Position numbers and translations under genes: made by a program. Under the pieces are notes generated by a model. It did not search any database, was not told the DNA's origin, and saw only the letters and a list, made by a program, of their open reading frames with translations. From contig JARRRL010000047.1 of NCBI GenBank assembly GCA_037380725.1, positions 1 to 55,887 on the forward strand: 55,887 bases of DNA, given 5' to 3'. The DNA is from Gammaproteobacteria bacterium (GTDB lineage Bacteria > Pseudomonadota > Gammaproteobacteria > Pseudomonadales > JANQJO01). The stretch's first letter is position 1. Each line of letters opens with the position of its first letter. This document shows positions 7,357 to 42,947 of the stretch, piece by piece.

Positions 7357-7746
7357 TTAGGAAGATGATTCTGGGGGGATTAGCAATAGAATTGCCATTA
7401 ACCCAAAAAACAATGTCATTGTCATGATTACTCCGATCATGAAACTTTTAAGCGCTAGCTCGTACCAACGAGGCATATACGCCTTCACATTTTTGATGTT
7501 TCTTTTTTTGTCCAGCGAAGGCCGCAAAGCTAACCAAGCAAAAATTCCTGTTCTAATTAAAAAACCTGGAAAACGAGCCATGAGAATGGTTTCAGCCAGT
7601 GAGAAGTGCGGTTCTTTAAAATATTTTTCCAGTAATTTTTTTGGGGTAAAGATACTTAATAATAGCCAGGTAGTGGGCATCCACAGTACGCCAGCTATCA
7701 TAACCGTGAAAAAAACTGTGGCTAAATCTTCCCCTGTTATTTGCAT
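7357..7746 (-). CDS. small polytopic membrane protein (hypothetical; possible partner or immunity protein of the upstream LysM protein)
   Basis: 129 aa with 3-4 hydrophobic helices (VFFTVMIAGVLWMPTTWLLLSIF; IRTGIFAWLAL; FMIGVIMTMTLFFGLMAILLLI). Its start overlaps the end of the LysM gene by 10 nt, and it is on the same strand. Confidence 0.65.
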   Translation of the reverse strand: MQITGEDLATVFFTVMIAGVLWMPTTWLLLSIFTPKKLLEKYFKEPHFSLAETILMARFPGFLIRTGIFAWLALRPSLDKKRNIKNVKAYMPRWYELALKSFMIGVIMTMTLFFGLMAILLLIPPESSS

Positions 7747-8873
7747 AGTTGATCAATACCAATTAATTTAACTAAGTCGTGTTTGTGATAGAATCTGTCG
7801 TAAATAAAAGCAGACCCTTTACCCGCCCCCAGTGATAAAGCTGCAGCCCCAATACCCAGGGTTAAAGCAGTGACCCAACCAGTGGGTGTGCCAACAAAGT
7901 ACAAGGTTAACAAAGCCCCCGTTCCAATACTAGCAGCCGTGCTACCAAAAGTTTCGACAAATACCTCATTTTTTTGTTGTCGAGTGGATGCTTGGCCAAT
8001 GTCGTAGCACCCCATGCCCACTCCGGCAGCGGTTAAGATGATGCCACCGCGTGTGGCGTATCGAGCCATTCGTTTCAGGCGATCAAGCTGGTTGTCGATA
8101 GTGGCTGTGGCCGGAATAGACTTGGTGCGGCTAATGCGAATTGCTTCGTTGGCGGTTTTTCCTTTAAACAGCATCTTTTCAAAGGGACCGATTTTTTGTG
8201 AATATTTTTTGAGGGCGAGCCGCCGTCGATAATCATATTGACTTTTGCTCAGAGCGCCGCGCTGATAGTGATTGTACAGGGTTTTGACTTCGGCAATAAA
8301 GGCATTGTTTGCTTGTGCCGTCAAACCACCCCAGGTGTTAAAGCCTGCACCCACTGCTGTACTCAATAAACCATAGTTTTCGTGCATCCAAGCTAAGGCC
8401 CAGAATGCGTCTTGCTCTTTCGGTAACGTAGGGATATGGCGCTTAAAGCGTTCCACGTAGTTGCCAGTTGGTTCTAAACGATGGCGAGTGGTGGCCGGTG
8501 CTCTTTTTTCTTTGTAAAAATCTTCTGGGACAGGACAAGACGCCATCGCGCTGTGCTCCGGCAGTGGCATTAGTCGGATTAGCTGCCCAACACGAATCTC
8601 ATTTGGGTCGTAAATCGAGTCATTAAAGTGGAGTACTGAAGCTAGTGCCATTTTGTACCGAGGATCGTTGTAACGAATGGCGTAGTGGCTGGTGATAATC
8701 TGACTCAGCGTGTCGCCTCCCTTGACTACGTATAGCAAAGGGGTTGCCAGCTGGTTGTTTAAAGGTTGCTCAATTAAATGAGTAAGTGTGTCAGTGTTTC
8801 CCACAGGACTTCCTATATGCTTGATTGAGATAATGTTAACGTAATTATTATTGGTGTGATTGCTACCGTCCAC
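7737..8873 (-). CDS. LysM domain protein with a C-terminal glycine-zipper / bilobed hydrophobic region
   Basis: 378 aa. The LysM motif is YVVKGGDTLSQIITSHYAI...DPNEIRVGQLIRLMP. The C-terminus has Gly/Ala-rich membrane segments (GGIILTAAGVGMGCYDIG; STAASIGTGALLTLYFVGTPTGWVTALTLGIGAAALSLGAGKG). There is no signal peptide. Confidence 0.75.
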   Translation of the reverse strand: MDGSNHTNNNYVNIISIKHIGSPVGNTDTLTHLIEQPLNNQLATPLLYVVKGGDTLSQIITSHYAIRYNDPRYKMALASVLHFNDSIYDPNEIRVGQLIRLMPLPEHSAMASCPVPEDFYKEKRAPATTRHRLEPTGNYVERFKRHIPTLPKEQDAFWALAWMHENYGLLSTAVGAGFNTWGGLTAQANNAFIAEVKTLYNHYQRGALSKSQYDYRRRLALKKYSQKIGPFEKMLFKGKTANEAIRISRTKSIPATATIDNQLDRLKRMARYATRGGIILTAAGVGMGCYDIGQASTRQQKNEVFVETFGSTAASIGTGALLTLYFVGTPTGWVTALTLGIGAAALSLGAGKGSAFIYDRFYHKHDLVKLIGIDQLCK

Positions 8874-9973: not shown

Positions 9974-12094
9974 TCATCCACAAAAGCCATCGCTGTCTGT
10001 GTCGACACAAAAGAAACGAAAGTGCCCTGCTGCTTGACCCAAAATTTTGTCCCGACGATTAACATAATAACTTTGAATATTAATGCGACAGCCCACATCA
10101 CTCGCATCGATCCCCAGCGCTGCCGCACACGCGTTCACGTCACAATCCACCGTGGGAATAAAACTACTGACCGAATACAATCGCCCACTGGGAACCGATT
10201 CGCACTCACTGGCTGGGGAAATCGTACTGGCCGTTAAATCCACGTGAGAAAATTCATACGTGTATTTAACCCGCGCGTGACTGCTCGCCAAACTTGAACT
10301 GACGGCTGTGTTCGCCGGATCCATAATGATCGCTGTTTTCATCTCCGATGGCGAGGTCCACTGATACAAAGGACGCGCCACACTCACCACCGTTGGATTC
10401 GCTGAATCAGCCGATCCCGTCACGAATGTTCCATCCACCAACACCTGACTCGACGCCTCTGGAATGCGAGGATGATTACGCACAATCGCACGCGTTCGCG
10501 TCGATCCATCGTTGAAATTCACCGTAATGGTGTACGTCACCGCCATCCCCAAGGTCACACACACACCCGAATCATTACTAATATAACGATTGTCTCCTGA
10601 CGAGTACGAGAGCGTTTCCGTGCCATCACCACCCAATGCGCTCGTATCCGTCGACGTTACCACCACACTGGTCACGGTTTTGGTGCCCGGGTAAACGCCA
10701 ATATCCGCCATAAAATGACCTTCACCACTGCCTTCATCACAACCGAAGCCGCTGTTGTGATAAATTTGAAAGCCGGAAACACGCGCTTGGGCAAAACTCG
10801 TATCACCTAATAATTCCCCGATAAAACCATACAAGTCCAATTGCGAATCAAAGGCGCAGTTGTTACTGCCCAATACCTGTATGAACACCGCCACTTGATC
10901 CATGCTTAAGGCCGTATCCGCGCCAAAACGGTTTGCGCTCAAACTCCGTTTCGCCATCAATCCCAGTAAATCGTCATTACTGATTCGGGTCACACGATCG
11001 GCAGAAACGCCAATATTATCCGATACATTCGTCAACATGCTGTTGAATTCCGCGATGACGGTATCCGCCACTAACGGCGTACCCATATAATGGTTATTGT
11101 ACGCCTCAATTACGCTGGATACCGTTGCTGTTGTACCATTTTTAAACGCCTCTGTGAATGCATCCGCAATCGGTTGTGGAAAATTGTATTGACCACCTTG
11201 ATTACAACTCTCGCTGACCAAACGCGTCAGATAACCACTGACTTCATCGGAACTGGCATCAGCCCCTTGCATCGCCAAGGCGTAATACTCACTTTCCAAT
11301 GACGCCACTTTGAACGCCTTTTCCGCGTTCCCACCAGCGGCAGCCACCCCATTCGCCGCCGCCAGCAGCGCATTTTGATTGCCAGAACCATTCGCTGAAG
11401 GGATGCTAATTTTGCCACCATCCACCAAATCAGCCGCATCTTGTAGCACCAATTCTCGCGTACTTTCCACCACGCCAGCGCTGGGCACAGGTGGCGCGGC
11501 ATCTCCCGGTACTTCACGAACATCGGATAAAATTTTTGCCGCCAAATCGGTTTCCGGCGACACATTCACCGTCACGTCTCCTCGTGGTGCAACAGGAGAC
11601 GTTAACGTTAAATCACCCTTGCTCACACGTATTTCATAATAATAATCACTGTCCTGCCCAGCCTCTTCTGGTGCCAAGGGCACATCATTTATCGAAAAAG
11701 CGCCACTGGCGTCTGTCATTACCGTTCCTATATCTATGGCTTCCGCCGATGCGTCACCACCGGCAATACGATACAACGACACCGTCGCATTAGGTAAAAC
11801 CATATTCGTGAGCGCCCCAGTGGTTTGCGCGGCCTCCGCCTTTTGCACTGGCCACAAACCCGCCACCCAATCTTGTACCGTTTCCCAACGCGTCGCAAGC
11901 GCAGACACATCCTCACCATTGGCGACCACAGCCCCCGACAGCGTCGCCACAGTTGCGCTTGTCGCGTTATCTGAACTGTCTGTGCTATCTGTGCTTTCTG
12001 AACTGCTTGTCCCCCCGCCTCCACATGCAGTCAGTAGCGCAAACACCACACTCAACGATAACACGCGACAACTTGGGCGCCGCCGGTTTGCCAT
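9974..12094 (-). CDS. large orphan lipoprotein with a carboxypeptidase-regulatory-like (Ig-like) module
   Basis: The likely start is ATG 12094 (MANRRRPSCRVLSLSVVFALLTAC/GGGGTSS), giving a signal peptide and lipobox. There is a Ser/Thr/Asp-rich linker. The segment VSLYRIAGGDASAEAIDIGTVMTDASGAFSINDV resembles CarboxypepD_reg modules. The track ORF extends to 12346 through the upstream tandem repeats, which I consider non-coding. Confidence 0.7.
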   Translation of the reverse strand: MANRRRPSCRVLSLSVVFALLTACGGGGTSSSESTDSTDSSDNATSATVATLSGAVVANGEDVSALATRWETVQDWVAGLWPVQKAEAAQTTGALTNMVLPNATVSLYRIAGGDASAEAIDIGTVMTDASGAFSINDVPLAPEEAGQDSDYYYEIRVSKGDLTLTSPVAPRGDVTVNVSPETDLAAKILSDVREVPGDAAPPVPSAGVVESTRELVLQDAADLVDGGKISIPSANGSGNQNALLAAANGVAAAGGNAEKAFKVASLESEYYALAMQGADASSDEVSGYLTRLVSESCNQGGQYNFPQPIADAFTEAFKNGTTATVSSVIEAYNNHYMGTPLVADTVIAEFNSMLTNVSDNIGVSADRVTRISNDDLLGLMAKRSLSANRFGADTALSMDQVAVFIQVLGSNNCAFDSQLDLYGFIGELLGDTSFAQARVSGFQIYHNSGFGCDEGSGEGHFMADIGVYPGTKTVTSVVVTSTDTSALGGDGTETLSYSSGDNRYISNDSGVCVTLGMAVTYTITVNFNDGSTRTRAIVRNHPRIPEASSQVLVDGTFVTGSADSANPTVVSVARPLYQWTSPSEMKTAIIMDPANTAVSSSLASSHARVKYTYEFSHVDLTASTISPASECESVPSGRLYSVSSFIPTVDCDVNACAAALGIDASDVGCRINIQSYYVNRRDKILGQAAGHFRFFCVDTDSDGFCG

Positions 12095-12095
12095 G

Positions 12096-12155
12096 CCTCT
12101 ATTTAATGTGCCACTATTTAATGTGCCACTATTTAATGTGTCACTATTTACTGTG
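12096..12155. repeat. four tandem 15-nt units (CCACTATTTAATGTG-like) abutting the lipoprotein start codon
   Basis: The units are 12096..12110 cctctatttaatgtg, 12111..12125 and 12126..12140 ccactatttaatgtg (identical), and 12141..12155 tcactatttactgtg. On the coding (minus) strand the last unit supplies AGAGG 2 nt before the ATG. Confidence 0.85.
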
Positions 12156-12458
12156 GCACAATCACCGTTGATAGTCAGCGGGTTCACAATCATGATATCC
12201 TCCTGGACACAGCGAAACGCGCAAACGCAAAAAGCAAAATGGAAGCAATACTGTGTCAAAATGATTGTCCAAAAGATGGCATTCAGACAACCGGTAAACA
12301 AAACAAGAAACGCTCCATCAGAATAGCATTTTTTAACTGCTACCACTGACCTTCGGACTGCATCACATTTTCAGTATACGTCTTTGATTGAGTCACCTTT
12401 ATTCTTGTCCTATTGAGTTTTAATTTGAGCAATCACTGAACGACGGGAGAACCGACTC

Positions 12459-13271
12459 ATGCACTTTCGAAACTGGCTTTCATTCATTACCTTGATCGCC
12501 GCCATGACGCTTTCATCGCCAGCGCTTTCTTTCGGCCCAGACGGACACCGTATTGTCGCGCAGCTTGCTGAAAAACATCTTACGCCACGCGCTCAAAGCG
12601 CCATACTCAAAATAACCAAAGGCAAACACCTGGCTCGGCTGGCGACGTGGCCAGATCGAATACGCTCACGATCAGCCTGGAAACACACCAAACCGTGGCA
12701 TTACCTATCGATCGATGACGACGAGTCTTTCAATGACTATTCACACAGCAAAGATGGCGATATTCTCGTGGCGCTTGCACACTTTGAGCAGGTGCTCATG
12801 GACAAAAAAACCAGCCCTAAAAAAATGTGGCAAGCCCTAGCCTTTTACACTCACTTCGTTGGGGATATTCACCAACCCTTGCACGTGGGTCGCCGCGACG
12901 ATTATGGCGGGAACAGCATCCACGTTAAGTGGTTCAATAAAAGAACAAATTTACATGCCGTTTGGGACAGTAAACTCATCGATTACGCGTCATTAACCGT
13001 TAAAGAATATGTGACCTTCTTGGATAAGCGCTCGGAAACCCAAATCAAAACCTGGCAAAACAGTACGTACCTCGATTGGGCAAAAGAATCCAAGTGCCTG
13101 CGTCACAGCGTGTACGAGTGGGATAAGCCCACCAATAAGCGCCTTTCTTCTAAGCATCACATTCCCAATTTGTCTCACCGCTACGCCGATCAACACAAAA
13201 AATTGATCGACGAGCAACTGGCTAAAGGCGGGATTCGCTTAGCGGGAAAATTGAATCAGATTTTTCAATAA
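12459..13271 (+). CDS. secreted S1/P1-family nuclease
   Basis: 270 aa with a signal peptide (ITLIAAMTLSSPALS/F). S1/P1 landmarks are present: FGPDGHRIVA, WHYLSIDD, HFVGDIHQPLHVG, GGNSIHV and HAVWDS. Confidence 0.85.
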   Translation: MHFRNWLSFITLIAAMTLSSPALSFGPDGHRIVAQLAEKHLTPRAQSAILKITKGKHLARLATWPDRIRSRSAWKHTKPWHYLSIDDDESFNDYSHSKDGDILVALAHFEQVLMDKKTSPKKMWQALAFYTHFVGDIHQPLHVGRRDDYGGNSIHVKWFNKRTNLHAVWDSKLIDYASLTVKEYVTFLDKRSETQIKTWQNSTYLDWAKESKCLRHSVYEWDKPTNKRLSSKHHIPNLSHRYADQHKKLIDEQLAKGGIRLAGKLNQIFQ

Positions 13272-13310: not shown

Positions 13311-14369
13311 TCAGCACGAGGACAGTGCCACACCTTGTCGCCGGGCGCGCGCACTCAAATCCCTGAGCAAATGGTCAATCTGTACTCGCCTTTGCGCTTG
13401 TGGCAACAATGGAAACAATGCACCATCAAAAGCATTATGTGAAATCAGACTTTGTACGTCTTCCGAAAGCGTTTGCCATTCTGCACTGTTCGCAATCAAC
13501 AAAACACGATCCAATGCCACAGTATGCCGATGCGCAAGCGCATCCAGTACATCGGGTGCACGGCGTTCGCTTTCCGCTAGCCTTTTCAAGGCGTCAAATT
13601 GCACAGCAGGCTGTGAAATTGCACTTAATAACGCTTCTCTAATTTCAGGACGGCGCGGCAGCTTGCCATCCACGTAAGTATTTGGATGCTGTGCAATAAG
13701 ATGAATGATATCCGTTCGACCCTGGAACAACGCATTTCGAATAACCGAATAATCATCCACACTGGGATCAAGGCGTCGGTCACTTAACAAAACACGCACC
13801 GTTTTATCGTGACCTCGATACACAGCATCTCGTAGCGCCTTATGATTATCTTCCGTGGGATCAACACGAGGATCCTGCAGCAACAGCGCAACAATTTCGC
13901 TGTATCCCTTCCTCGAGGCGTCTTGAATGTTCACGTTATCACCCGCCCCAGGGTTGGCGCGCCCATCTTTCAATAACAAGGCTACGATCTCAGTATTCCC
14001 CCTTAACACGGCGGAATAAAGACCCTCGCTGTGATTAACACTCGGATCAACACCCCCTTGCGAAATCATAAGATCCACAAGGTCTACACGACCGAGCTGA
14101 CAAGCCTTCAAAAACACGCTGAGCGCTTGCTGATTCTCACGCGGAGGCGCAAACAAGTGGGTATGAGTCGTCGGTCCCCTCAGATCATACCCGCACTGAT
14201 CGACGCACAAACGCTGAACCACATCAGTCACGTTGGCAAACGCGGCTTCATTTCGATTTTCGAAAAGCCATGACGAGGTATTCTGATTTTGTGTAGGAGT
14301 GGAAACAGGGCATTCGGAAACAGAAACCGGAAACAAAACTCGTTGAAGTTCTGCATCAAAAGAATTCAT
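13311..14369 (-). CDS. ankyrin-repeat protein (eukaryote-like, no signal peptide)
   Basis: 352 aa with 4-5 consecutive ~33-aa ankyrin-type repeats (LKACQLGRVDLVDLMISQGGVDPSV; LYSAVLRGNTEIVALLLKDGRANPG; ASRKGYSEIVALLLQDPRVDPT; LRDAVYRGHDKTVRVLLSDRRLDPS; IRNALFQGRTDIIHLIAQHP). Confidence 0.8.
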   Translation of the reverse strand: MNSFDAELQRVLFPVSVSECPVSTPTQNQNTSSWLFENRNEAAFANVTDVVQRLCVDQCGYDLRGPTTHTHLFAPPRENQQALSVFLKACQLGRVDLVDLMISQGGVDPSVNHSEGLYSAVLRGNTEIVALLLKDGRANPGAGDNVNIQDASRKGYSEIVALLLQDPRVDPTEDNHKALRDAVYRGHDKTVRVLLSDRRLDPSVDDYSVIRNALFQGRTDIIHLIAQHPNTYVDGKLPRRPEIREALLSAISQPAVQFDALKRLAESERRAPDVLDALAHRHTVALDRVLLIANSAEWQTLSEDVQSLISHNAFDGALFPLLPQAQRRVQIDHLLRDLSARARRQGVALSSC

Positions 14370-15671: not shown

Positions 15672-17954
15672 ATGTTATTACCACCACATGACACATCGAT
15701 TAAAAGAGCAAACACACAAGCACCGCGCCTACTCATCACCGTGGCTGCCGCCGCCGTCATCACCTCAGCCTGTGCACCTATGCCCGCTGACCAAACTCGC
15801 AGCGTCAATTCCACGTATCAACGCATAACGAACTACATTTCTACTGGAAAACCCAGCAAAACCACTCCAACTTCAATCTCATTAGCCGATCAGCAAGACG
15901 ACGCCAACAAGCAACAAAAGAAAAGGGGTGGATTTTGGCCATTCTATCGCGCTGAGAGTGATACGAAAGCATCCCCCACGACCGCAGCAACGTTAACCGA
16001 GACCCAAGCCCCTTTCAGCAGTAGCACACAGGCTGAACGCGCTGCGCAACCAAGTGCGAGCACCGTAAGCACAACAACGCCCACGACTGAAACAGCTCAA
16101 AGCAGCAATAACAGCAGCAATAACAGTACCTTTCTCTCTTTTTTGCAAGATAAGACCGGTATTGGCATCTCTCCGGGCCATGACAGTGGGGGCAATCAGC
16201 AAAACGACAGCCCAAGCACTGCCTCAGCGACTGCGTGGCCACCAAAAAAACACGCCAGCACAAGCGAAATGCCCGTAAACAATCCGCTGATCGATACGGC
16301 CCAGCAATTACGAGGCATGCCAGTCAATACGTCCATTGCCGATCTCTACAGTGGACGCTTCCATCCCAAACAACCTGATCTTGAAAATGATACGATTTCA
16401 GAAAACAGTCGATCCGGTTTTGCTAAGTTGTGGGATCGGTTTACCCATGTTTTCAGTAACGAAGATGACCAGAATGAAGTCGCCCCCCCTCTGAGCCCTG
16501 AGATCAGCAAAAACACCACACAAGCCAGCCCAGTAGCCATCGTTACTCCGCAGAGTGCTTCGTCCCAAAAAAGTACTCCGCCACAGAAAAGTACCCCAGC
16601 ACAGAAAAGTACTCCAGTACAGAAAAGTACCCCAACCCAGGAGAGCACTTCGCCTCAATCAACACAATCCAATCCTGTAGCAGAACAAGCGAACCTTGAC
16701 ACCCAAAACACCCTGCTTACCAAGGCGCCGTCGATATCAACCAATTCCATGCCCACGACCACGCCAACAATGGTATCGCCGCCCTCCCCCACCCCAGCGA
16801 ACCCCACGCCGAGCCCGATAAACCACCCAACAAGCGCTGACCTCAAAACGAACAACGCGATATCGATCGCGCTAAAAAACAATCCCATTATGATTACGGC
16901 ATTGGACTTAACCGTCACCGACTTGAACGCCAACAACGATGACGGCGCCAGCACCATGAACGAACGCACCCTAGCGCTCATCACGAAAGGCGCCATTGAT
17001 GACACCGATCTCTATGACTTTGTGTCCCCAGCTAACGCCGAAACACTGAAAGCGCCCAACACATTGAGCGCGACAATGCAAAACCCACTCTCAAAACCCA
17101 TGACGCTGTTGCACCACATTATTATTCGCCAAGACACCAATTGGGATCAACAATACACCGCCCACACGACACCACAAGCGGTATTATTAATGAAACTCAA
17201 GGACAATGAGACAGGCGTTCACCTGACCGACACGCGGCGTACCATTGCGCTAACACCAGAACAAACCCGCTCCATTCAGAGCATGAAAAAAGCCATTACG
17301 CCCTTGATCACAGAAATGCTATCAGAATTAGCCATCAGCGCATACGCATCCCTTGAGCGTAATGAGCCCTCCGCCAATGCCTATGACAATGCTTATGACA
17401 ATACGAACGACAACAGCTACTATTCACCGAACAGTGCTCAGCATCCCAGTAAGCAGAGCCTCAACGAGGACACCACGTATTCCCACGTTCTGGATCTATC
17501 GGACGCCGCACTCAAAAACCAAAGCAATTCGGACTCCTCGCGATTTCAAGTGATTGCAGTCACACCGACCACAAGCACCCGACCTGAGCCCACTTCGGAT
17601 TCGCCTACTCAGTCTTCTTCTACTCAAGGTTCCCCTTCTCAAGGTTCCCCTTCTCAAGGTTCCCCTTCTCAACAAAAGCTTGCCACATCAAGCTTGTTTT
17701 ACAGCATTCAAATCCAGCACTCATCGACGTTGGCATACTTAAAAGATTACGTGCGTAATCTGTCCCTGGATAGCGATGAAATTCAAATTGTTCGCCAAAA
17801 GGCGGGTAAGCACATACGATATATCGCAATTTACGGTCACTTCGACTCCGCTGGCGACGCCCAATCCTCCTTACATCTTCTACCCGAAGACGTGTTATCA
17901 GAAGGCGCATTTGTACGTCGCATCAACTTAAGCCACCCACTCAGTGCGGGCTAG
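15672..17954 (+). CDS. low-complexity lipoprotein with a C-terminal SPOR-like (septal peptidoglycan-binding) domain
   Basis: 760 aa. GGAGAG lies 8 nt before the ATG, and there is a lipobox (LITVAAAAVITSAC). Long Ser/Thr/Pro/Gln-rich tracts carry tandem repeats. The C-terminus FYSIQIQHSSTLAYLKDYVRNL...IRYIAIYGHFDSAGDAQSSLHLLPEDV...AFVRRI is SPOR-like (DamX/FtsN type). Confidence 0.7.
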   Translation: MLLPPHDTSIKRANTQAPRLLITVAAAAVITSACAPMPADQTRSVNSTYQRITNYISTGKPSKTTPTSISLADQQDDANKQQKKRGGFWPFYRAESDTKASPTTAATLTETQAPFSSSTQAERAAQPSASTVSTTTPTTETAQSSNNSSNNSTFLSFLQDKTGIGISPGHDSGGNQQNDSPSTASATAWPPKKHASTSEMPVNNPLIDTAQQLRGMPVNTSIADLYSGRFHPKQPDLENDTISENSRSGFAKLWDRFTHVFSNEDDQNEVAPPLSPEISKNTTQASPVAIVTPQSASSQKSTPPQKSTPAQKSTPVQKSTPTQESTSPQSTQSNPVAEQANLDTQNTLLTKAPSISTNSMPTTTPTMVSPPSPTPANPTPSPINHPTSADLKTNNAISIALKNNPIMITALDLTVTDLNANNDDGASTMNERTLALITKGAIDDTDLYDFVSPANAETLKAPNTLSATMQNPLSKPMTLLHHIIIRQDTNWDQQYTAHTTPQAVLLMKLKDNETGVHLTDTRRTIALTPEQTRSIQSMKKAITPLITEMLSELAISAYASLERNEPSANAYDNAYDNTNDNSYYSPNSAQHPSKQSLNEDTTYSHVLDLSDAALKNQSNSDSSRFQVIAVTPTTSTRPEPTSDSPTQSSSTQGSPSQGSPSQGSPSQQKLATSSLFYSIQIQHSSTLAYLKDYVRNLSLDSDEIQIVRQKAGKHIRYIAIYGHFDSAGDAQSSLHLLPEDVLSEGAFVRRINLSHPLSAG
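16566..16655 (+). repeat. in-frame 18-nt tandem repeat x5 (QKSTPx hexapeptides) inside the SPOR lipoprotein gene
   Basis: The sequence caaaaaagtactccgcca / cagaaaagtaccccagca / cagaaaagtactccagta / cagaaaagtaccccaacc / caggagagcacttcgcct encodes QKSTPP QKSTPA QKSTPV QKSTPT QESTSP. Confidence 0.85.
17625..17669 (+). repeat. three perfect 15-nt tandem copies (caaggttccccttct; QGSPS x3) inside the SPOR lipoprotein gene
   Basis: Read directly: 17625..17639, 17640..17654 and 17655..17669 are identical. Confidence 0.9.
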
Positions 17955-19591: not shown

Positions 19592-21652
19592 ATGCCCTCA
19601 GCAGACCAGACCTCCACCCAAGACAACATCAACCACAGCCCTATCATACCCACTCAATCGGGTATCAACTCACAAACGGGTTTTCCTTCTTCGAACATCG
19701 CATACTCACTGGTCAGCTGCGATCGTGTTTTCTATCTCATTTGGGCTGTCGTCACCCTTTGGCTCTTAGTTGCCGGGCTCACAAACCAAGGCGAAACCGG
19801 GGATGGCTATCAGAGTATTGTTAACACACGTTACCTGCTCGGAGATGCCAGCTTCTGGTACGTTCAACGTGGCCCGCTGAACACATTTCTGTTGTTGCCC
19901 GCTGAAATCGCCCATAGCATGCTGCACCTACACCCTTTAGACGTCCGTCCTTTTCACATCATGACCACACTGATTCACAGTGGCTTTTTGCTGGGCGTGT
20001 GGTTTCTTTTGCGGCAACAATACCCCCATCAGGCCTCGTCACGCTTGTTGGTGTTTGTCTGCACCATCTTGTCACTGATGTTTTACGCCTGGTCGGTGCA
20101 AATCAGTCCTGATATTTTGCCAGGTTTGATGTATCTCTCTATGATTTTGCTGACACAACGCTGGTATGAACAACGCACCGCGAAACAAGCGGGTACGAAA
20201 ACGTTACTGGGCATCTGCGCACTGGGCATCGCTGGGCCACTCATCAAGCCCACGTATGTCATTTTTTGGGTTTCGATCTGGTCCTACACAGCCTGGACTT
20301 TCGTCCTGTCGCATCTGTCATCCCAGCGCGCCAAGCTACGACTCACCTTTGCGGACTTGTGGCGATTTTCAATCGCAGGCGGGGCCAGCGCATTAGTGGT
20401 TTGGTTGGCGTATGCCGTGCATGTCAGTTTTTTAAACCCGGATCCGTTCCTCATTCATCCACTGAGTTACGCAAAAGCCATTCAAGAACAGATCGAGGCG
20501 GATAAACTGCCCATTTATTTCCCGTGGTACATCTATCTGATCAATTTGCACAATTTTGGCATTGCTACGCTGGCGCTTTGCGCTGGCCTGATCGCAACAA
20601 AAATCCCGTTTTTACACCGACGATTTTCCACCGCCTCAGCAACACCTCTCTCCTCTCCATTACCAGAAAGCCAGAACGCTTCTCCATCGACGTCTACACA
20701 GTATCGCCACGGTTTTCAGCTGTTTTGTTTGCTGTTTTGTCTGGTTTTTATGCATCTGGTGTCGTATCGAGAAGTACGTTACTTGATCTATTTAATGCCT
20801 TTAACCGCACTCATACTGGTGCCGTCGACCACCTTACTGCTGAAGTGGAAACGTGAGCTACTCACCCTGGTTCTAGTCCTGTTGTTGATTGACTACGTCA
20901 GGATTGTGCCATTCGCATTAGCACAAGTGACACTGGGCAGTCGATTGAACATCATCAAGCTGTTTAAAGTCCTCGAAGACATTCGCCCGCTTGACGATAG
21001 TGTTCAAAACGCAACTCAAAGCACAACTCAAAGCACAACAAACCCTATCGGATCGGAACCTGAAAACCCTGAAAATTCTAAAACCCCTGAAGAAAACAAA
21101 GTGCTGATTTCCCCCATCCTCAGTTTTGCGTTATTTCCCGATAGTCCCATTATTGGTGACCGCTATCACGGTTATTATCACCTTTCCGACCTACTGGTCT
21201 TCAATCTCTTTGAATCGCGTTACATCGTGAAAGCACTCCCGAAAAATTTCGGTATACATTACGCCGACTTAAGTGCAGGTGACGCCGTCGTCTACGCCAA
21301 TCATCAATTGGTGCGCAATCCCAAACAACCCGAAGAAGACGCGTTGTTCTTTAATAACTTTTTTCAAATTTCAGGCATCGTTAAACACATTAATCTGAAA
21401 CGAGATGGTGATTTTTTCTACGCCCAAAACTCAACAGGACCGCTGTTAATTGTCCCACCTGATCACCTCCAAGAAACGCTGACATTCGTGCCAAAAGCGC
21501 CTGCCGCAGCAGACCTTGAACGCTGGGGATGGGCCACAGCTCACGACGAGACAGCCACAATTTTAGCCATTGAGGTGAATGTGTTGTGCAAACGCGGCTG
21601 GTGCTACCCGATCGAAGCACAGCGACAAGGTGAGGCCAGCACGAAACAATAA
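19592..21652 (+). CDS. polytopic membrane protein with a C-terminal soluble domain (possible GT-C-fold glycosyltransferase, ArnT/PMT-like)
   Basis: 686 aa with at least 10 hydrophobic helices in the first ~470 aa, followed by a ~200-aa hydrophilic C-terminal domain. This overall topology is typical of GT-C enzymes. I cannot point to a definitive catalytic motif, so the functional call is weak. There is an in-frame 12-nt duplication (TQSTTQST). Confidence 0.55.
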   Translation: MPSADQTSTQDNINHSPIIPTQSGINSQTGFPSSNIAYSLVSCDRVFYLIWAVVTLWLLVAGLTNQGETGDGYQSIVNTRYLLGDASFWYVQRGPLNTFLLLPAEIAHSMLHLHPLDVRPFHIMTTLIHSGFLLGVWFLLRQQYPHQASSRLLVFVCTILSLMFYAWSVQISPDILPGLMYLSMILLTQRWYEQRTAKQAGTKTLLGICALGIAGPLIKPTYVIFWVSIWSYTAWTFVLSHLSSQRAKLRLTFADLWRFSIAGGASALVVWLAYAVHVSFLNPDPFLIHPLSYAKAIQEQIEADKLPIYFPWYIYLINLHNFGIATLALCAGLIATKIPFLHRRFSTASATPLSSPLPESQNASPSTSTQYRHGFQLFCLLFCLVFMHLVSYREVRYLIYLMPLTALILVPSTTLLLKWKRELLTLVLVLLLIDYVRIVPFALAQVTLGSRLNIIKLFKVLEDIRPLDDSVQNATQSTTQSTTNPIGSEPENPENSKTPEENKVLISPILSFALFPDSPIIGDRYHGYYHLSDLLVFNLFESRYIVKALPKNFGIHYADLSAGDAVVYANHQLVRNPKQPEEDALFFNNFFQISGIVKHINLKRDGDFFYAQNSTGPLLIVPPDHLQETLTFVPKAPAAADLERWGWATAHDETATILAIEVNVLCKRGWCYPIEAQRQGEASTKQ

Positions 21653-22694: not shown

Positions 22695-25218
22695 TTAACG
22701 TCTTTCTGCTGTGCCAGGCCCCAACGGTTTTATCAAGAGTATCAATTCTGGCAAAAGCGTCAACGAAGCGAGCAAAGCAATCAACATCGCCAAGCTGGTA
22801 AACAAGCCAAAATAAATGGTCGGGTAAAAACTGGATAGCGTCAAAATAGAAAAACCAAAAATAATAGTTATTGACGTGTAATACATGGCCTTGCCAATGG
22901 TGGCGTGACTGCGGAACATGGCCGCCGAATACTGGCCATCTCGCGCAAACTCAGCCTTAAAGCGATACATGTAATGAATGGTATTGTCGACCGCTATCCC
23001 AACACTGATGGCCGCGATGGTGATGGTCATCATATCCAGCGGAATGCCCAAACTACCCATCATGCCTAATACGACTCCCGCCGCCAAGAGGTTGGGTAAC
23101 ATCCCAATCAATGCCAACTTCAATGAACGAAACAGCACCACAAACATAATCAGAATGCAGGCAAAGACTACCCCAATGGTCGCAATCTGAGATTTGAACA
23201 AACTTTTTAACATGTTGTTATACAACACCACCATACCCGTAAAATGCACTTCTTCGGGGTTTAAACCCTGCTCATTAACCAGGTAATCGTGAATCTGATC
23301 CAGTAAAGCTTGCCGCTTAAGCTCCGTATCGGATTCCCGCACACGCAACGTAAAACGAACTTTCCCCGTGGCCTCATTCACATAGGGATCCAATAAAAGA
23401 CCGCGCAAATCATCAGGAAACATGGCATTCAAAAAAGCGAGTTCCAAGGCATTTAATGATGCCCCTTTAATTTGCTCCGCCAGTTCAATCGTGGTGATCA
23501 CCGACAGTACTTTACCCGTTTCTGGCAATGCTTCTAACCACGTGTGAATATCCCGAAATTGCGCCATATGCGCTTGCGTGAAAATCGTCGAATCACCGTA
23601 AACGTCATCCAGACAGTCATCATCGAGGAAACAATCTTCCTGATCGTTTTCCAAATCCCCTTTTAATTTTACATCCAGAATAATATCCAAGGGCGTCGTT
23701 CCCCCCAGATGCTCATCAATGGTTTTCATTCCCTGATAGATTTCTGTTTTTTCCTTAAAATAATCGATAAATCGATTCTCCACGGACAAGCGACTGATTC
23801 CCCACGCACTGAATACGCCAAGTACGAGTGCCGCTACCGTCAACCCGCCCCCCATGCGCATCGTGAGGTTCGCAAACTTCACGCTGAACACGTCTTGCGA
23901 TTGTTGACGTTTCACATCACCAGGCTCGCGCGCAAAAAAAGACAATAAAACGGGAAACAACAGAAAGGCCGTCGCGTAGGAAAAAGCAATACCCATGGTC
24001 ATCATAATGCCGAAATCAATAACCGGTCGAATATTACTCACCAAAAGCGACACAAACGCGACCACAGTCGTGAGCGAGGTATACAAACACGGTCTGGCCA
24101 TTTGTCCGACCGTCTCCGCAATCAAAGCCCGCTGTGTCCACTGCGGATAGCGATCCACCAACTCACGATATCGCACAATCAAATGGATGATCATCGACAT
24201 GGTAATAATCAACAACAGCGCAATGAAATTGGACGATATGACCGTTACGGGAAAACGCAAGAAACCTAAAAAACCGACCATCACCCAACACGTCATCGAA
24301 AAGCCGTCGAAACAAGATGCTCAGCATCAACACCAAAAACACCACCACACCGAGGCCAAACACGCCCACATCGCTGCGCACGTAGTCGAGCATATCAACC
24401 ACGATCATGGGAATACCGCCCAAAAACAAAGTACCGATATCATTATACTGATGCACCACCGCACGAATTCGGTCCACGGCTTCTCTGTGCGCTTCAATGG
24501 CTTGATGATTGAGGTCTTTCACTTCCAATTCGAGTTGCGCCAGGCGATTGGCCTCCTCAGGCTCCAAGGGCGCTTGACGCGCTTTGCTTCGCAAAGCGTT
24601 GCGAGACGCCACAGCCTCTGCACTGCGCGAATCGGTTTTCAATACCACTTGTATTGCGGTCGTTCGTCCGTCCTGACTGACCAACAAATCCCGATAAAAC
24701 GGATTGCTCGTAAACGCAGCCTGCGCCGCGCTCCAATCTTGATAGCCATCCTCCAATGTACCCAAATGCTCCGACACATTTGTTAACGACATCTCCGGAT
24801 CATTCAGTATGGGTACATCCAGCACCGAGTTGATCTTCTTCACTTGAGGCACACGCAGCAAGTCCTGCTTCAACGATTGCAACTTCGTGATCACTGGCTC
24901 ACTGAATAAGGGCGCTGTCGGTGTGAACGCAATCAATAGATAATCATCAGTGGAAGGGAAATTCTGGCGTGAGGCCCGATAATATGCGAGGTCTTTATCG
25001 TCCTCCAAGGTTAAAGAGTCAGCGGACGCATCCAGTTCAAACTGAGGCGTATAACGCAAAACACTCACAATCGCCAGCACCATCACCAGAAAAAACAAAA
25101 CTGGCCGCGACAGCACAACCCGGTCGTAGACACGCCCCAACAAGGTGGCATTGAGGCGGTGACTGGCTTGATTGTCTTCAGGCTGGGATGATGAGACAGA
25201 TTCTTTCGAGCAATCCAT
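22695..25218 (-). pseudogene. RND-superfamily (MMPL/HpnN-like) exporter, reading frame broken by a 1-nt frameshift
   Basis: ORF 24163..25218 covers the N-terminus, TM1 and the large periplasmic loop, ending ...VGVFGLGVVVFLVLMLSILFRR and then drifting out of frame. ORF 22695..24296 begins MTCWVMVGFLGFLRFPVTVISSNFIALLLIITMSMIIHLIVRYRE... and covers the second half, with a second loop and 6 TMs. The two frames can only be joined within 24297..24320, which contains an A4/T4 run at 24299..24302. Confidence 0.75.
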
Positions 25219-25546: not shown

Positions 25547-28500
25547 TCAGTGCGCCGATATCTGTCCAGACAGTTGTTCAGAACCAGACAGTTGTTCAGA
25601 ACCAGACATCTGTTCAGAACCAGACATCTGTTCAGATAAAGAAGGCCCACGGAGATACTTCAATTCAATGAGGGCTTGTTCAATGGCCGTCTCACCAATG
25701 CGGTAAGGCTGATCAAAATATTCCCCACAATTTAACTGTAAATGGTTCAAAGTCGCCTCAAGATCCAGATCTTTTTGCTCGCAGACCGTATTGATCCATT
25801 GTAAAAACTCCACGCCTTTAATGGGGCGCTCTTGGCTGTGGCTTTCGGCATCCTTTTTCCGTTGTTTCGTGCCGAGGTTTCTCAAGACATCCGCTCGATC
25901 TTCTGCGGTTTCAACCTGGCTCATCACGTACTTCACTACGAAATCTTTCGTAAAGACGTCAAAATATCTTTCGATAAATGCCGCATTGTCATCCGCACTG
26001 GGAGTGAAGGTGCGATCTTGAAACCCGGCAACGCCACCTGGCAAACTCACGGCCATATCGACGGCGTGCCTGGCCAAGGCCAACGAGTGTACACCACCGT
26101 TGTATATTCGTGTACTGTCAAAAAAAGCCCGCGTTTTAGCATCCGCAACAGCTTGTTTTATTCGCTCCTCAAATGAGGCATTAGCGGGCAACTGTTTACA
26201 CACAATATTTTGGAAAACCTTATCAAGGCCTTCCACTTGCCCTGATTCACATTCCTGAAACCCGCTAATTAAGACCCCCATTTGAGCACAAAAGGCGGCT
26301 GGATCGGATTCCGCAAGCTGCTCAAGCTTCACACCAACTTCAGCAAGCGTTTTCCGAACGCTGGCTCGATGTGTCGAATTAACAAAAAACACATCTTCCT
26401 CGTCGTACAAAGATTGATCACTGGTGATGACCCTAAGCCGTTCAAGATAATTTTCCTGAATTTGACGAGGCGACAGGACCTCCTCTCTGTTCGACTCGTC
26501 TCTGTTCGTTAACAAAATCGGGTCAGTATAGTATGGTGATTCCTCATTTTCCAAGTCCAGTCGTTTGAAAAACGATTCGAATTTCTGTTGTATCGGGTAA
26601 TCACTCGGCGCGGTAAACTCGACGGAGGAAACACGAACCGCTGCGCGCACTGTTTCAACATTCATGGTTTCTGGCATGGAAAATGCGAACACCATTGACA
26701 GAATTTTATCCCCAAGCTGGGATAAATGCGCCAACGAATCATCCAATGTCAATCGCTTTTCCAATTGATCGACAAATTCAAAAATAGCGTCAATGTGTAA
26801 TTGGCGATCTTCCTGCTCTAACTTTTTACTCAGAATCGCCACCCACTGATCGTCATTCAGATTGAAGTTTTCAACGTGTGACGTCATATCCAGAAGCGAT
26901 TTGACAGCCATTTTCCTCACAATATCGATTCGATGTGGTTCAAGCAAATTCAGTTTCACCACCGATTGCACTTCCGCCTCGCTCAATTTTACCCGACCTT
27001 TTATCCATCGGGAAGCCAGGTCGTGTTTTTGATCCTCATTCAAATAAGGTAAGAAAATTTCCGTATTGTATAAGAACACCTTGGGACTACAGCGGTGATA
27101 GATCTTTTGAACAAGTGTGTCCATCTTGTCATCGGACAGATCAAACAATTGAATATTCCGAACCAATAACGCGTGAAGGTCGGCATCAACACCCTGTTCG
27201 GTCAGCTTGGTATCAAGGCACTGTTGGGCAAATTCAAATCGTTCCGATAGATTTAATTGAAATTTATCAATATTCTTCAGAAACAATTTAGGAGATGAAT
27301 GCCGGAGTATATCGGCAAATTCCAATCGCTTTTCAGGTGAGACGTCAAAATTTTTCAGGTTATTTGACAAGGCATCGAGGCAGCCCTTCGCTTGAAGCTG
27401 ATCAAAAAAATTGTTAATTTTAGATTCGGACAAAGCGAAGTGACGGATGTTACGGGCCAAGGCATTTTCATCTTGCTCGAAAAGTCGGCGCGCAATGTTT
27501 TCTCGCTGCTCAAGACTCAGTCTCGATAGGTCAAATTGCGTCACATCAAAATCATGCGAAACCGTCCCCTCTGCTGTCGCTTTCTCCAAAAACGGGAGTT
27601 GGCATTCACTCGGAAGGTTAAATTTTTTAAAATATTTATGAAACAGTTTTGGACTTTGCGCAGCGAATTTATTGGCCAGATCCATGCGCTGTTTTTGAGG
27701 CATGCATTCAAAATCGATCTTCTCAATACAATAATCAAACAAGAGGGGACACTGCTCAATGATACAAGTGGCGAATCCATATTGCTGATCAACACTCAAC
27801 GCCGACATGTTGAACTCATCAATCTTATTCTCTAATAAAATTTTTTCATAGTAAAATTCATTTTGTGGTTTTTGTAGAAGATTGATCATGCGCTTTAAGT
27901 ATTTCAGTTGACGATCAGAGTCCATTTCATGGATTTTAAAGGATATCTTTCCTAAGTTCGACAACAATATAAGATCATCAGACTCGGATTTGACGCTCAG
28001 GCGTTCCAACAGCAGGTCGAGAAAATCCAATTGCTGGTCGGAATCCAAACTCGAAACGTCAAAACAATTAAAATACACTTGCAAGTCATTGCGACTCTGC
28101 TCAGCCATCGCTTCCGACAACAACAGGCGGTGTTTGAATTTCAGGGTATTAACACCAAACGTATCCAGTTTCTTCAGAAACTGATCCGCATCCTCTGGGG
28201 ATGAGGCCAGAATCTCTCGGGCGAATTTCAGTTTTTCTTTACTGCGATCTTGCATTTTCTCCAACAGACGAACATCCATGTCATGATGACTATGCCAGTG
28301 TTTTATGGCTTTTCGCAACGCGAGTGTGGCGTCTATTTTAGACTTAATGCGAAACAGCTTTGAACTGCCGCTGTTATTGGCTGGGTCACGAAATGAGGCA
28401 AAACACCCAATTCTGGCGGGAAACGATGAATCCGTACGCGAGGCAAGCTGCTCGATCACGCTGCTCGGCGCAGCCGTTCGATTGCGGACGGGTTGCCCGA

Positions 28501-40188: not shown

Positions 40189-41181
40189 ATGGGTAACATG
40201 AGCACAAAAAAAGAACTGCCATCCAGTATCAGTAAAAAACGCCAGAAAACGCTCCCGCCCGGTTACGAATGGCAGGCCGTAAGTGCTTGGCGAATCAGTC
40301 AGTTGCAGCCATCCTCTTGCCCGCCGCCGCGTACGCACAGTTACCGCTCCCCCATTCTGACTCACCGAGGAGAAGACTTACACCATAATTTGCGAGATCA
40401 CATTCAGGTCCCCACCGAACAACCACCTTCACGACTTCAGTCCAATACAGACGACACACCCAATTCAATCAATCACATACAGAACACTCGCAGCAAGATG
40501 CGTCTCTTAGAAGATCTCGAAGAACGCTTCTTTTTGACTTTTCGAGGTTTACCAAGTGAGCAGCAAGTTGCACTGCGCGATCGCCTCCAAGAGGCAGATT
40601 TAGCCCTGTTCCACTTTCAACAACAAACCCTCGCCAAGCGTCAATCTACGCTTAGAGAACAAGCCGAACAACGCCAGCTAAGCCACGATGCAAACGCACA
40701 ATGGGAACGGCTCGCTCAGCGACTAAAAGCAATCATCGCTCGCGCACAGGACAAACACAGCCAAGAGAAAAAACAAGATACAGGCAGCGACGACTCACCG
40801 CAATATGCTCTCTCATTCCAATCATGGAGCGCTCTGGTCGAAGCGCTGATTCTGGCGATATCCAGCACAGCGAAATCAGGTCTCAACGCAACCCATTACC
40901 TGCCGCCACTGAGCGCGCCTCCCGGCAACGTTCGCTTACGTCGCCAAATGGCAGCGCGTATAATGCAATCAGAGGCTAAAAAGCAAAGCAAACAACTAAA
41001 AAGGATGCAATGGCTATTACGCCAAGATAAGAAACACAAGCACGCTCAATTTGGTGCGCAACCCACGGAACATAAATCTGAGGCAGACGCCACTTTTTCC
41101 GATTACCCCCCTTCCGAACACTCGTCCTCAGAACACTCACCTTCCGACTACTCGCCTTCAGAACATCCATTTCACCCCTGA
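40189..41181 (+). CDS. hypothetical Gln/Ser-rich coiled-coil protein with a C-terminal PSEH-type repeat
   Basis: 330 aa with no signal peptide or TM segment. The central region is helical, and the C-terminus reads DYPPSEHSSSEHSPSDYSPSEHP. I recognise no family. Confidence 0.55.
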   Translation: MGNMSTKKELPSSISKKRQKTLPPGYEWQAVSAWRISQLQPSSCPPPRTHSYRSPILTHRGEDLHHNLRDHIQVPTEQPPSRLQSNTDDTPNSINHIQNTRSKMRLLEDLEERFFLTFRGLPSEQQVALRDRLQEADLALFHFQQQTLAKRQSTLREQAEQRQLSHDANAQWERLAQRLKAIIARAQDKHSQEKKQDTGSDDSPQYALSFQSWSALVEALILAISSTAKSGLNATHYLPPLSAPPGNVRLRRQMAARIMQSEAKKQSKQLKRMQWLLRQDKKHKHAQFGAQPTEHKSEADATFSDYPPSEHSSSEHSPSDYSPSEHPFHP

Positions 41182-42871: not shown

Positions 42872-42947
42872 TGGCGTCCCCTAGGGGATTCGAACCCCTG
42901 TTACCGCCGTGAAAGGGCGATGTCCTAGGCCTCTAGACGAAGGGGAC
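42872..42947 (-). tRNA. tRNA-Glu (anticodon UUC)
   Basis: The reverse complement reads GTCCCCTTCGTCTAGAGGCCTAGGACATCGCCCTTTCACGGCGGTAACAGGGGTTCGAATCCCCTAGGGGACGCCA. It is 76 nt, nearly identical to the E. coli tRNA-Glu as I recall it, with anticodon loop CUUUCAC and an encoded CCA end. Confidence 0.95.

Follow-up and report, generated by a model that had tools for sequence, protein, structure and literature searches.

What do two large, soluble proteins encoded in tandem by an unclassified gammaproteobacterium do, and where do they act? The genes for the pair lie within a 55,887-nt stretch of DNA (contig JARRRL010000047.1, positions 1 to 55,887, assembly GCA_037380725.1), hereafter the window, which was recovered as part of a metagenome-assembled genome (MAG). 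An initial annotation, made from the sequence letters, had read the pair as candidate translocated effectors or toxins. We propose, with a probability of roughly 55%, that copy A and copy B, as we designated them, are modular effector-like proteins in which a solenoid scaffold is joined to a Cys/His warhead, and that they are exported by a Sec-independent route and directed at a eukaryotic target.

The copy A gene occupies 25547-28531 and encodes 994 aa from an ATG at 28531 to a stop codon at 25547-25549, and the copy B gene occupies 28923-31841 and encodes 972 aa from an ATG at 31841 (coordinates from the open reading frame (ORF) list). Both genes, and all of their features described below, are on the minus strand. 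The maximal ORFs are those of the initial annotation, 25547-28561 (1004 aa from a TTG at 28561) and 28923-31871 (982 aa), and the offset of 3376 nt that it gave was confirmed. The ATG codons sit 10 codons downstream of TTG, with GGCGG located 9 nt upstream of the copy A ATG, and were taken as the likely starts because the independently called proteins P0001 (identical to copy B) and P0002 and the ortholog of a sister MAG (locus L085) all begin there; residue numbers are counted from them. The two proteins share 81% amino acid identity and 89% positives with 10 gapped positions (BLASTP), including a 9-residue indel containing TEQGVDAD that is present only in copy A, which agrees with the estimate by eye of four identical residues in five. 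Nucleotide identity is 89%. Neither protein has a signal peptide or transmembrane segment as judged by hydropathy (maximum Kyte-Doolittle 19-residue mean of 1.08, no hydrophobic N-terminal core), as had been annotated. Identity between the copies is spread evenly over the N-terminal region (0.84), the repeats (0.82), and the C-terminal domain (0.81), so the last ~300 aa are not, as had been stated, the best conserved part of the pair; it is the C-terminal ~375 aa that distant relatives have retained. Each protein is modular and soluble, with four parts: a lineage-specific, Ser-rich N-terminus, an alpha-solenoid, a ~375-aa all-alpha module, and a short acidic, Ser-rich tail.

The C-terminal module spans residues 601-975 of copy A (25607-26731) and 591-965 of copy B (28947-30071), and is common to 25 representative clusters of proteins. 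Conservation was assessed in an alignment of 24 sequences with 15-36% identity to the query, and positions are given in copy A numbering. Only three columns are invariant: Cys761 (codon 26249-26251), Gln765 (26237-26239), and His815 (26087-26089). The Cys lies in the motif C-[PE]-[ST]-G-Q-x-E, just before the helix at domain residues 162-177, and the motif is further conserved at position 763 (Ser/Thr in 24/24), position 764 (Gly in 23/24), and Glu767 (26231-26233; 23/24). The His belongs to a G-V-H motif, in which Val814 is found in 22/24 sequences, and begins the helix at domain residues 214-228. Additional conserved positions are Arg821 (26069-26071; 22/24), the acidic residue 839 of a GF-x-[ED]-R loop (26015-26017; Glu in 21/24, Asp in both window copies), an Asp or Glu at 878 (22/24), a Lys or Arg followed by Pro at 902-903 (22/24 each), and Trp912 (23/24). 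Copy B retains the Cys (Cys751, codon 29589-29591), the Gln (Gln755), and the His (His805, codon 29427-29429). At the position of Glu767 it carries a Lys (K757), the sole exception among the 24 sequences, and a second Lys (K811) replaces Arg821; these substitutions at two conserved positions suggest that the paralogs may differ in activity or specificity.

An AlphaFold2 model of the C-terminal module, generated from the 24 sequences, is entirely helical and has a mean predicted local distance difference test (pLDDT) value of 84.3 and a predicted template modeling score of 0.81. Cys761 and His815 are each found at the N-terminus of a helix in this model, and a helix dipole lowers the pKa of a thiol. 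A Foldseek search with the module gave no match at E <= 0.001 in the PDB (best E of 1.8, TM score at most 0.2) or in BFVD, a result that does not establish a new fold since the method is weak on all-helical folds. Searches of PDB sequences, with the single sequences or with a profile of the C-terminal module, likewise returned nothing credible (chance matches only). Two known motif types were considered and set aside: a PTP-like CX5R motif, in which the residue at Cys+6 would be Arg and is Glu here, and Fic or HEPN motifs, whose His and Arg spacing and order do not fit.

These features suggest that the module, which appears from sequence comparison to be an undescribed family, is probably a thiol enzyme that employs a Cys-His pair aided by an acidic residue, a Gln, and an Arg. 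The enzyme would be a hydrolase or transferase using Cys761 and His815, with assistance from the acidic residue 839, Gln765, Glu767, and Arg821. The same residues could instead form a metal, structural, or ligand site in a module that is not enzymatic, the whole protein then being a binding or scaffolding factor. Cys, His, and Glu/Asp are also a common set of metal ligands, the entirely helical fold is atypical of Cys-His hydrolases, and neither the PDB profile search nor Foldseek found similarity to a known catalytic fold. However, the invariance of just three residues at 15-36% identity, in combination with a G-Q-x-E motif and a conserved Arg, is more typical of catalysis. In addition, the Cys and His are both placed at helix N-termini, and effectors include all-alpha Cys enzymes such as the NEL E3 ligases. 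We therefore regard the non-enzymatic alternative as decidedly unlikely.

Upstream of the module, residues 157-600 of copy A (26732-28063) and 156-590 of copy B (30072-31376) form a predicted alpha-solenoid of degenerate ~30-33-aa two-helix repeats. A hidden Markov model (HMM) derived from the protein itself identified strong repeat units in copy A at residues 157-196, 240-272, 273-304, 333-365, 395-424, 463-493, and 556-586. A second HMM was built solely from 85 repeats of proteins from outside the window (class 1, described below), with the consensus FKLPEEQRFEIAKILAKKNPEELAKNIENF. This foreign-repeat HMM detected copy A with an E value of 1.3e-21 and copy B with 9e-15, while the other window ORFs scored nothing and the best of 100 shuffled controls reached E=0.55; the units that were significant in copy A (residues 277-304, 338-365, and 395-424) agree with the positions found by self-comparison. 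Pfam searches of the pair (E <= 1) and of the regular arrays in class 1 relatives (E <= 0.01) recovered none of the Ankyrin, HEAT, TPR, Sel1, LRR, PPR, and mTERF families. The annotation of a degenerate repeat belonging to no named family was thus borne out. A full-length AlphaFold2 model from a two-sequence alignment was poor (pLDDT 48), with helix pairs across residues ~60-590, and a Foldseek search with this low-confidence model returned generic solenoids only. The solenoid would serve as a target-recognition scaffold.

The two remaining parts are shorter. Type III secretion substrates would be marked by an unstructured, Ser-rich signal at the N-terminus and by a chaperone. The Ser-rich N-terminal region of copy A (residues 1-156; 28064-28531) begins with 40 residues that include 9 Ser/Thr and are predicted to be disordered, and an HMMER search of 1.84 billion representative sequences found no relatives of the 156 aa outside the species. 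The tail contains an 18-nt tandem repeat (25566-25636; 3.9 copies at 96% match by Tandem Repeats Finder) that encodes SEQ[ML]SG, a unit present about four times in copy A, three times in the sister-MAG ortholog, and twice in copy B. It is acidic and Ser-rich, and the last 35 aa of copy A include 4 Glu, 10 Ser/Thr, 1 Lys/Arg, and an Ile at position -4. We take this composition to be compatible with Dot/Icm-type C-terminal signals, which combine a Glu-rich 'E-block' and small polar residues with a hydrophobic residue near position -3/-4, as a lead only.

For a role as translocated effectors, the relatives of the two modules provide indirect support. Neither protein reaches the gathering threshold of any Pfam-A or NCBIfam family, and the same is true of the two modules in the relatives; copy A has no match in either collection, and copy B matches only DUF3861 (13.5 bits against a cut-off of 27). 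A match to a housekeeping family, which had been named as grounds for rejecting the effector reading, was thus not found. Word-indexed searches of 5.8 billion proteins with copy A, the C-terminal-domain profile, and a clean catalytic-core profile recovered only the paralog or its fragments, and the index does not reach this family. An exact look-up of P0001 returned no record. The pair alignment matched nothing when scanned against GTDB genomes or JGI metagenomes, a scan with a tighter subgroup alignment gave only 5 loci, and tblastn against a plasmid collection found nothing. The exhaustive HMMER search of the 1.84 billion representatives yielded 36 matches in total, which fall into a repeat class (class 1) and a C-terminal-domain class (class 2).

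Class 1 relatives match residues ~240-590 and are large proteins with far more regular arrays of the window repeat (P0008, P0013, P0014, P0018, P0019, P0024, P0028, P0033, P0035, and P0036). P0019 is from a Chlamydiota MAG, the gene for P0014 adjoins two Legionella_OMP genes, and the contig of P0024 also carries a mitochondrial-carrier (Mito_carr) gene. Five of these proteins (P0013, P0014, P0019, P0024, and P0036) and, in part, P0033 share another C-terminal domain, also without a Pfam family, that is marked by the motifs ETDDPxDLLLCGTExxSCQR, NKxLLGY..DGKN, and AP(F/Y)EYxD. This domain differs from the window module, and the 33-aa repeat array is therefore found with two or more distinct warheads.

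Class 2 relatives match residues ~601-975 and comprise the 25 representative clusters. The source of P0007 is a Holosporales MAG and that of P0010 a Ca. Nucleicultricaceae MAG; members of the Holosporales live in obligate association with eukaryotic hosts (PMC11909080). In P0003, the closest class 2 relative (35% identity), the module is fused to a different helical array. Its partner in most members of the class is a ~36-aa HEAT-like array ('HHPxQxDAA'), with ankyrin repeats in P0005 and leucine-rich repeats (LRRs) in P0023. A Sec signal peptide or lipobox is found at the N-terminus of ~10/21 full-length class 2 relatives, compared with none of the repeat-class proteins and neither window protein. 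The Sec signals in about half of these relatives suggest that the module generally works outside the bacterial cytoplasm. The class 2 genes stand alone amid housekeeping genes, and a conserved partner gene was not found in the neighborhoods examined. On two marine gammaproteobacterial contigs, an 81-aa ORF without a Pfam family begins at the stop codon of P0005 (L083, 11962-12207; L084, 8435-8680). This ORF may encode a partner, chaperone, or immunity protein, and no equivalent is present in the window. Four Holosporales-type members (P0016, P0020, P0022, and P0029) contain an internal Cys-rich hydrophobic segment (~aa 196-320, e.g. CCCCMPCYCTCFLPYKLYNC...KRR) that resembles eukaryotic Cys-rich membrane or palmitoylation modules.

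Obligately host-associated lineages recur as sources of both modules: the Holosporales, Nucleicultricaceae, and Chlamydiota MAGs and the genomes with Legionella_OMP or Mito_carr genes. Beyond the window, the two modules are thus met with in bacteria that live inside protists as symbionts. The solenoid repeat family appears to be common to large proteins of Chlamydiota-type and Legionella-type bacteria, and the ~375-aa module family appears to be shared mainly with Holosporales-type endosymbionts. The proteins of the pair would be exported by a Sec-independent route and act on a eukaryotic host or prey cell.

The same data bear on the possibility that the proteins are cytoplasmic and never secreted, the pair being a lineage-specific enzyme or regulator whose target is bacterial and whose solenoid would bind either a partner from the bacterium or nucleic acid. 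The proteins have no signal peptide and the window encodes no secretion system, and the flanking genes are ordinary: yaaA, an MMPL/resistance-nodulation-division (RND) pump, a short-chain dehydrogenase/reductase (SDR), and UbiB. Alpha-solenoids of the mTERF, PUF, and PPR types can bind nucleic acids, and mTERF headed the Foldseek list obtained with the C-terminal domain, although its E value of 1.8 is not significant. A cytoplasmic role of this kind is at odds with the very patchy distribution of only 36 matches, with the obligate intracellular lineages that are the named sources of the relatives, and with the presence of Sec signals in about half of the C-terminal-domain relatives and the fusion of that domain to ankyrin and LRR arrays. 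A role in phage defense finds no match either, since the PADLOC anti-phage models gave a single hit, a 17-bit CARF match to a repeat stretch of copy A that is absent from copy B and the relatives. On balance, a purely cytoplasmic function seems unlikely.

An alternative destination for an exported protein is another bacterium, in which case the pair would be a tandemly duplicated polymorphic interbacterial toxin of the contact-dependent or type VI secretion system (T6SS) type. In favor of this, the proteins are large and modular and their type of C-terminal warhead is swapped between scaffolds, and Holosporales are thought to depend on T6SS (PMC11909080). The hallmarks of toxin loci are missing, however. 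No PAAR, RHS, LXG, VgrG, or filamentous-haemagglutinin trafficking domain was detected with Pfam or NCBIfam, and no small immunity ORF follows either copy, the spacer between the copies being 361 nt and the distance from copy A to the MMPL gene 328 nt. The relatives also lack a conserved downstream partner, and their fusion partners are eukaryote-type repeats. Because trafficking domains and an immunity gene are absent, we consider an interbacterial toxin very improbable.

Several observations weigh against a eukaryote-directed effector. The 56-kb window contains no type III (T3SS), type IV (T4SS), type VI, or type I (T1SS) secretion system gene and only parts of a type IV pilus; in particular, no Dot/Icm, T3SS, or chaperone gene is visible. 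The genome appears capable of free life, with an RND pump, a hybrid sensor kinase, and type IV pili, and its source is an unclassified Gammaproteobacteria MAG without a known host or habitat. Among the relatives, P0005 lies on a marine gammaproteobacterial contig with ordinary free-living genes. The catalytic role assigned to the Cys and His is read from their conservation only, the all-alpha fold is unusual for Cys-His hydrolases, and the lack of a Foldseek neighbor, for the reason given above, does not prove that the fold is new. The G+C content offers little help. The contrast reported initially (~57% in clpA and ftsK) was overstated, with measured values of 48.3% for clpA and 53.1% for ftsK, compared with 44.2% and 43.7% for copies A and B and 48.2% for the window. 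A strong G+C island was rejected, the difference being only ~4 points. Horizontal acquisition, which had been argued from base composition, is thus poorly served by so small a dip, and the patchy distribution across phyla is the better argument in its favor. The annotated architecture of a repeat scaffold and a catalytic-looking C-terminal domain held up, with neither part in a named family. The effector or toxin reading itself gained from the host-associated relatives, the shuffled scaffolds, and the Sec signals in relatives, and lost from the lack of a secretion system in the window.

Known systems resemble the pair in part. The IpaH/SspH/SlrP effectors combine a repeat scaffold with an all-alpha C-terminal domain that has an invariant Cys and they lack a Sec signal, and the fusion of the module to LRRs in P0023 extends this likeness. 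In contrast to these effectors, the pair has no NEL domain by Pfam or PDB sequence searches, and Foldseek gave no match at E <= 0.001 and no NEL structure among the matches listed. The NEL catalytic motif is C-x-D, whereas the pair has C-x-[ST]-G-Q-x-E and an invariant His, and its scaffold is a helical repeat rather than LRRs. The Cif/papain-like deamidases and PMT-C3/SseI-type hydrolases share with the module an invariant Cys, His, and Gln and an acid that follows the His. The Cys...His...acid order and the Cys-His spacing of ~54 residues are reminiscent of papain-like triads. The module differs in its predicted fold, which is all-helical, lacks a beta-sheet, and has His815 at the start of a helix; in the alpha/beta fold of papain-like enzymes, the His is on a beta-strand. 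The Gln of the module follows the Cys by 4 residues instead of following the His, and no sequence or structure match was obtained.

The translocated effectors of Legionella, Coxiella, Chlamydiae, and Rickettsiales that contain ankyrin, HEAT, or other repeats are, like the pair, large, soluble, stand-alone, and patchily distributed, with paralog expansion, and they join a eukaryote-directed repeat scaffold to an enzymatic domain that varies. Organisms of this kind are among those with relatives of both modules. The effectors differ from the pair in that neither of its modules is a named family, its source, an uncultured marine gammaproteobacterium, has an apparently non-reduced genome, and no Dot/Icm system or T3SS is known there. 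Generic alpha-solenoids (HEAT/ARM, TPR, mTERF, PUF/PPR, and TALE-like) share the ~30-33-aa two-helix unit and the predicted solenoid, but no Pfam repeat model matches the pair, which has its own consensus. The architecture and likely biology are familiar, but neither building block has been described before.

The locus is a tandem duplication of one gene, both copies of which are intact, separately promoted, and under purifying selection. Alignment of the DNA indicated that the duplicated unit extends from ~300 nt upstream of each ATG, taking in the promoter, to a few bases beyond the stop codon. The predicted promoters are of the sigma-70 type: TTGACT, 17 nt, and TACAAT at 28703-28731 for copy A, within the 361-nt spacer, and TTGATT, 17 nt, and TATAAT at 31920-31948 for copy B. 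Each matches 10/12 consensus positions, the top score in the scanned region, where it is shared by three sites, the third lying downstream of copy A. The copy A site falls in a block conserved between both upstream regions, and each copy thus appears to carry its own near-consensus promoter, kept in both upstream regions. The 5' edges of the duplication units are marked by an exact 23-nt direct repeat element, ATCGATATG-N5-ATCGATATG, located at 28808-28830 for unit A, ~80-100 nt upstream of the -35 hexamer, and at 32047-32069 for unit B, 6 nt past the yaaA stop codon. These are its only two matches in the window, compared with 0.05 expected by chance. The element consists of two ClaI-type palindromes and may act as a regulator site or form a weak hairpin, or it may be no more than the boundary of the duplicated segment.

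Computation of substitution rates between the copies, as had been advised, gave a dS of 0.26, a dN of 0.089, and a dN/dS of 0.34. By module, dN/dS was highest in the N-terminal 156 aa (0.61) and lower in the C-terminal domain (0.35) and the repeats (0.28). These values indicate that both copies are maintained by purifying selection, and the dS indicates that the duplication is not very recent. The N-terminal region has the lowest dS (0.13), which suggests gene conversion at the 5' end. Two sister MAGs of the same species (GCA_037380785.1 and GCA_037380745.1; 98.8% nucleotide identity) hold the same tandem locus beside the same MMPL gene, and the dN/dS of 0.34 together with intact ORFs in the three assemblies rules out pseudogenes. 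In GCA_037380745.1 (locus L086, JARRRM010000060.1, 1-2300), the upstream copy is chimeric, with 91.8% identity to copy A of the window and 88.1% to its copy B, a pattern that suggests either that the paralogs underwent gene conversion or that the tandem repeat collapsed during assembly.

Other features of the window were also recorded. The MMPL/RND-type transporter gene beside copy A (22695-25218, minus strand) is split into overlapping ORFs at 24163-25218 and 22695-24296. The corresponding ORF of the sister-MAG locus L085 is continuous over at least 648 aa, and in the genome of the window the split stems either from a frameshift or from an error of sequencing or assembly. The YaaA encoded beside the pair reaches no more than 60% identity among 185,579 species representatives, which leaves the organism without a close sequenced relative. 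Among 80 gammaproteobacterial yaaA loci, none carries an ortholog of the pair and none shares another flanking gene, so they are uninformative on insertion. The ankyrin-repeat protein reported initially was found at 13311-14369, adjoining an S1/P1-type nuclease at 12459-13271 (PF02265, E=6e-62); ankyrin repeats and S1/P1 nucleases have a eukaryote-like distribution. Six more large ORFs (330-790 aa) lack a Pfam family (7737-8873, 9974-12346, 15672-17954, 19592-21652, 34080-35870, and 40189-41181), and those at 15672-17954 and 19592-21652 have cluster members only in closely related MAGs. On sequence grounds, the six may be more lineage-specific, possibly host-interaction, proteins. The single Rfam match in the window is one tRNA gene (42875-42947, minus strand, 57.7 bits).

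A broader proposal goes beyond the pair, and we put it forward tentatively, as something we doubt more than we believe. The module would found a class of all-helical thiol enzymes that is new, combines Cys-His with a Gln and an acidic residue, has a fold not represented in the PDB, and is mounted on interchangeable scaffolds (33-aa repeat, ankyrin, LRR, and HEAT-like), and the repeat would be a new alpha-solenoid class shared with Chlamydiota-type and Legionella-type effector candidates. The carriers would be phylogenetically distant bacteria that live with eukaryotic cells, namely Holosporales-type alphaproteobacteria and marine gammaproteobacteria, and the source MAG would be an unrecognised eukaryote associate.

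If the module belongs to an ordinary cytoplasmic protein, the finding shrinks to two new domains of unknown function, of which many comparable ones exist. A domain with a confident model and a three-residue invariant signature across phyla, and a repeat family that reaches Chlamydiota-type bacteria, are testable material. Next to nothing is known of the effectors that Holosporales and many uncultured symbionts use (PMC11909080). Because copy B is changed at two near-invariant positions, the tandem pair is a natural experiment in paralog divergence, and copy B may have diverged in activity or specificity. If the module is indeed a host-directed thiol enzyme, it would represent a new biochemical class in effector biology and would provide a sequence marker of host association in unclassified MAGs.

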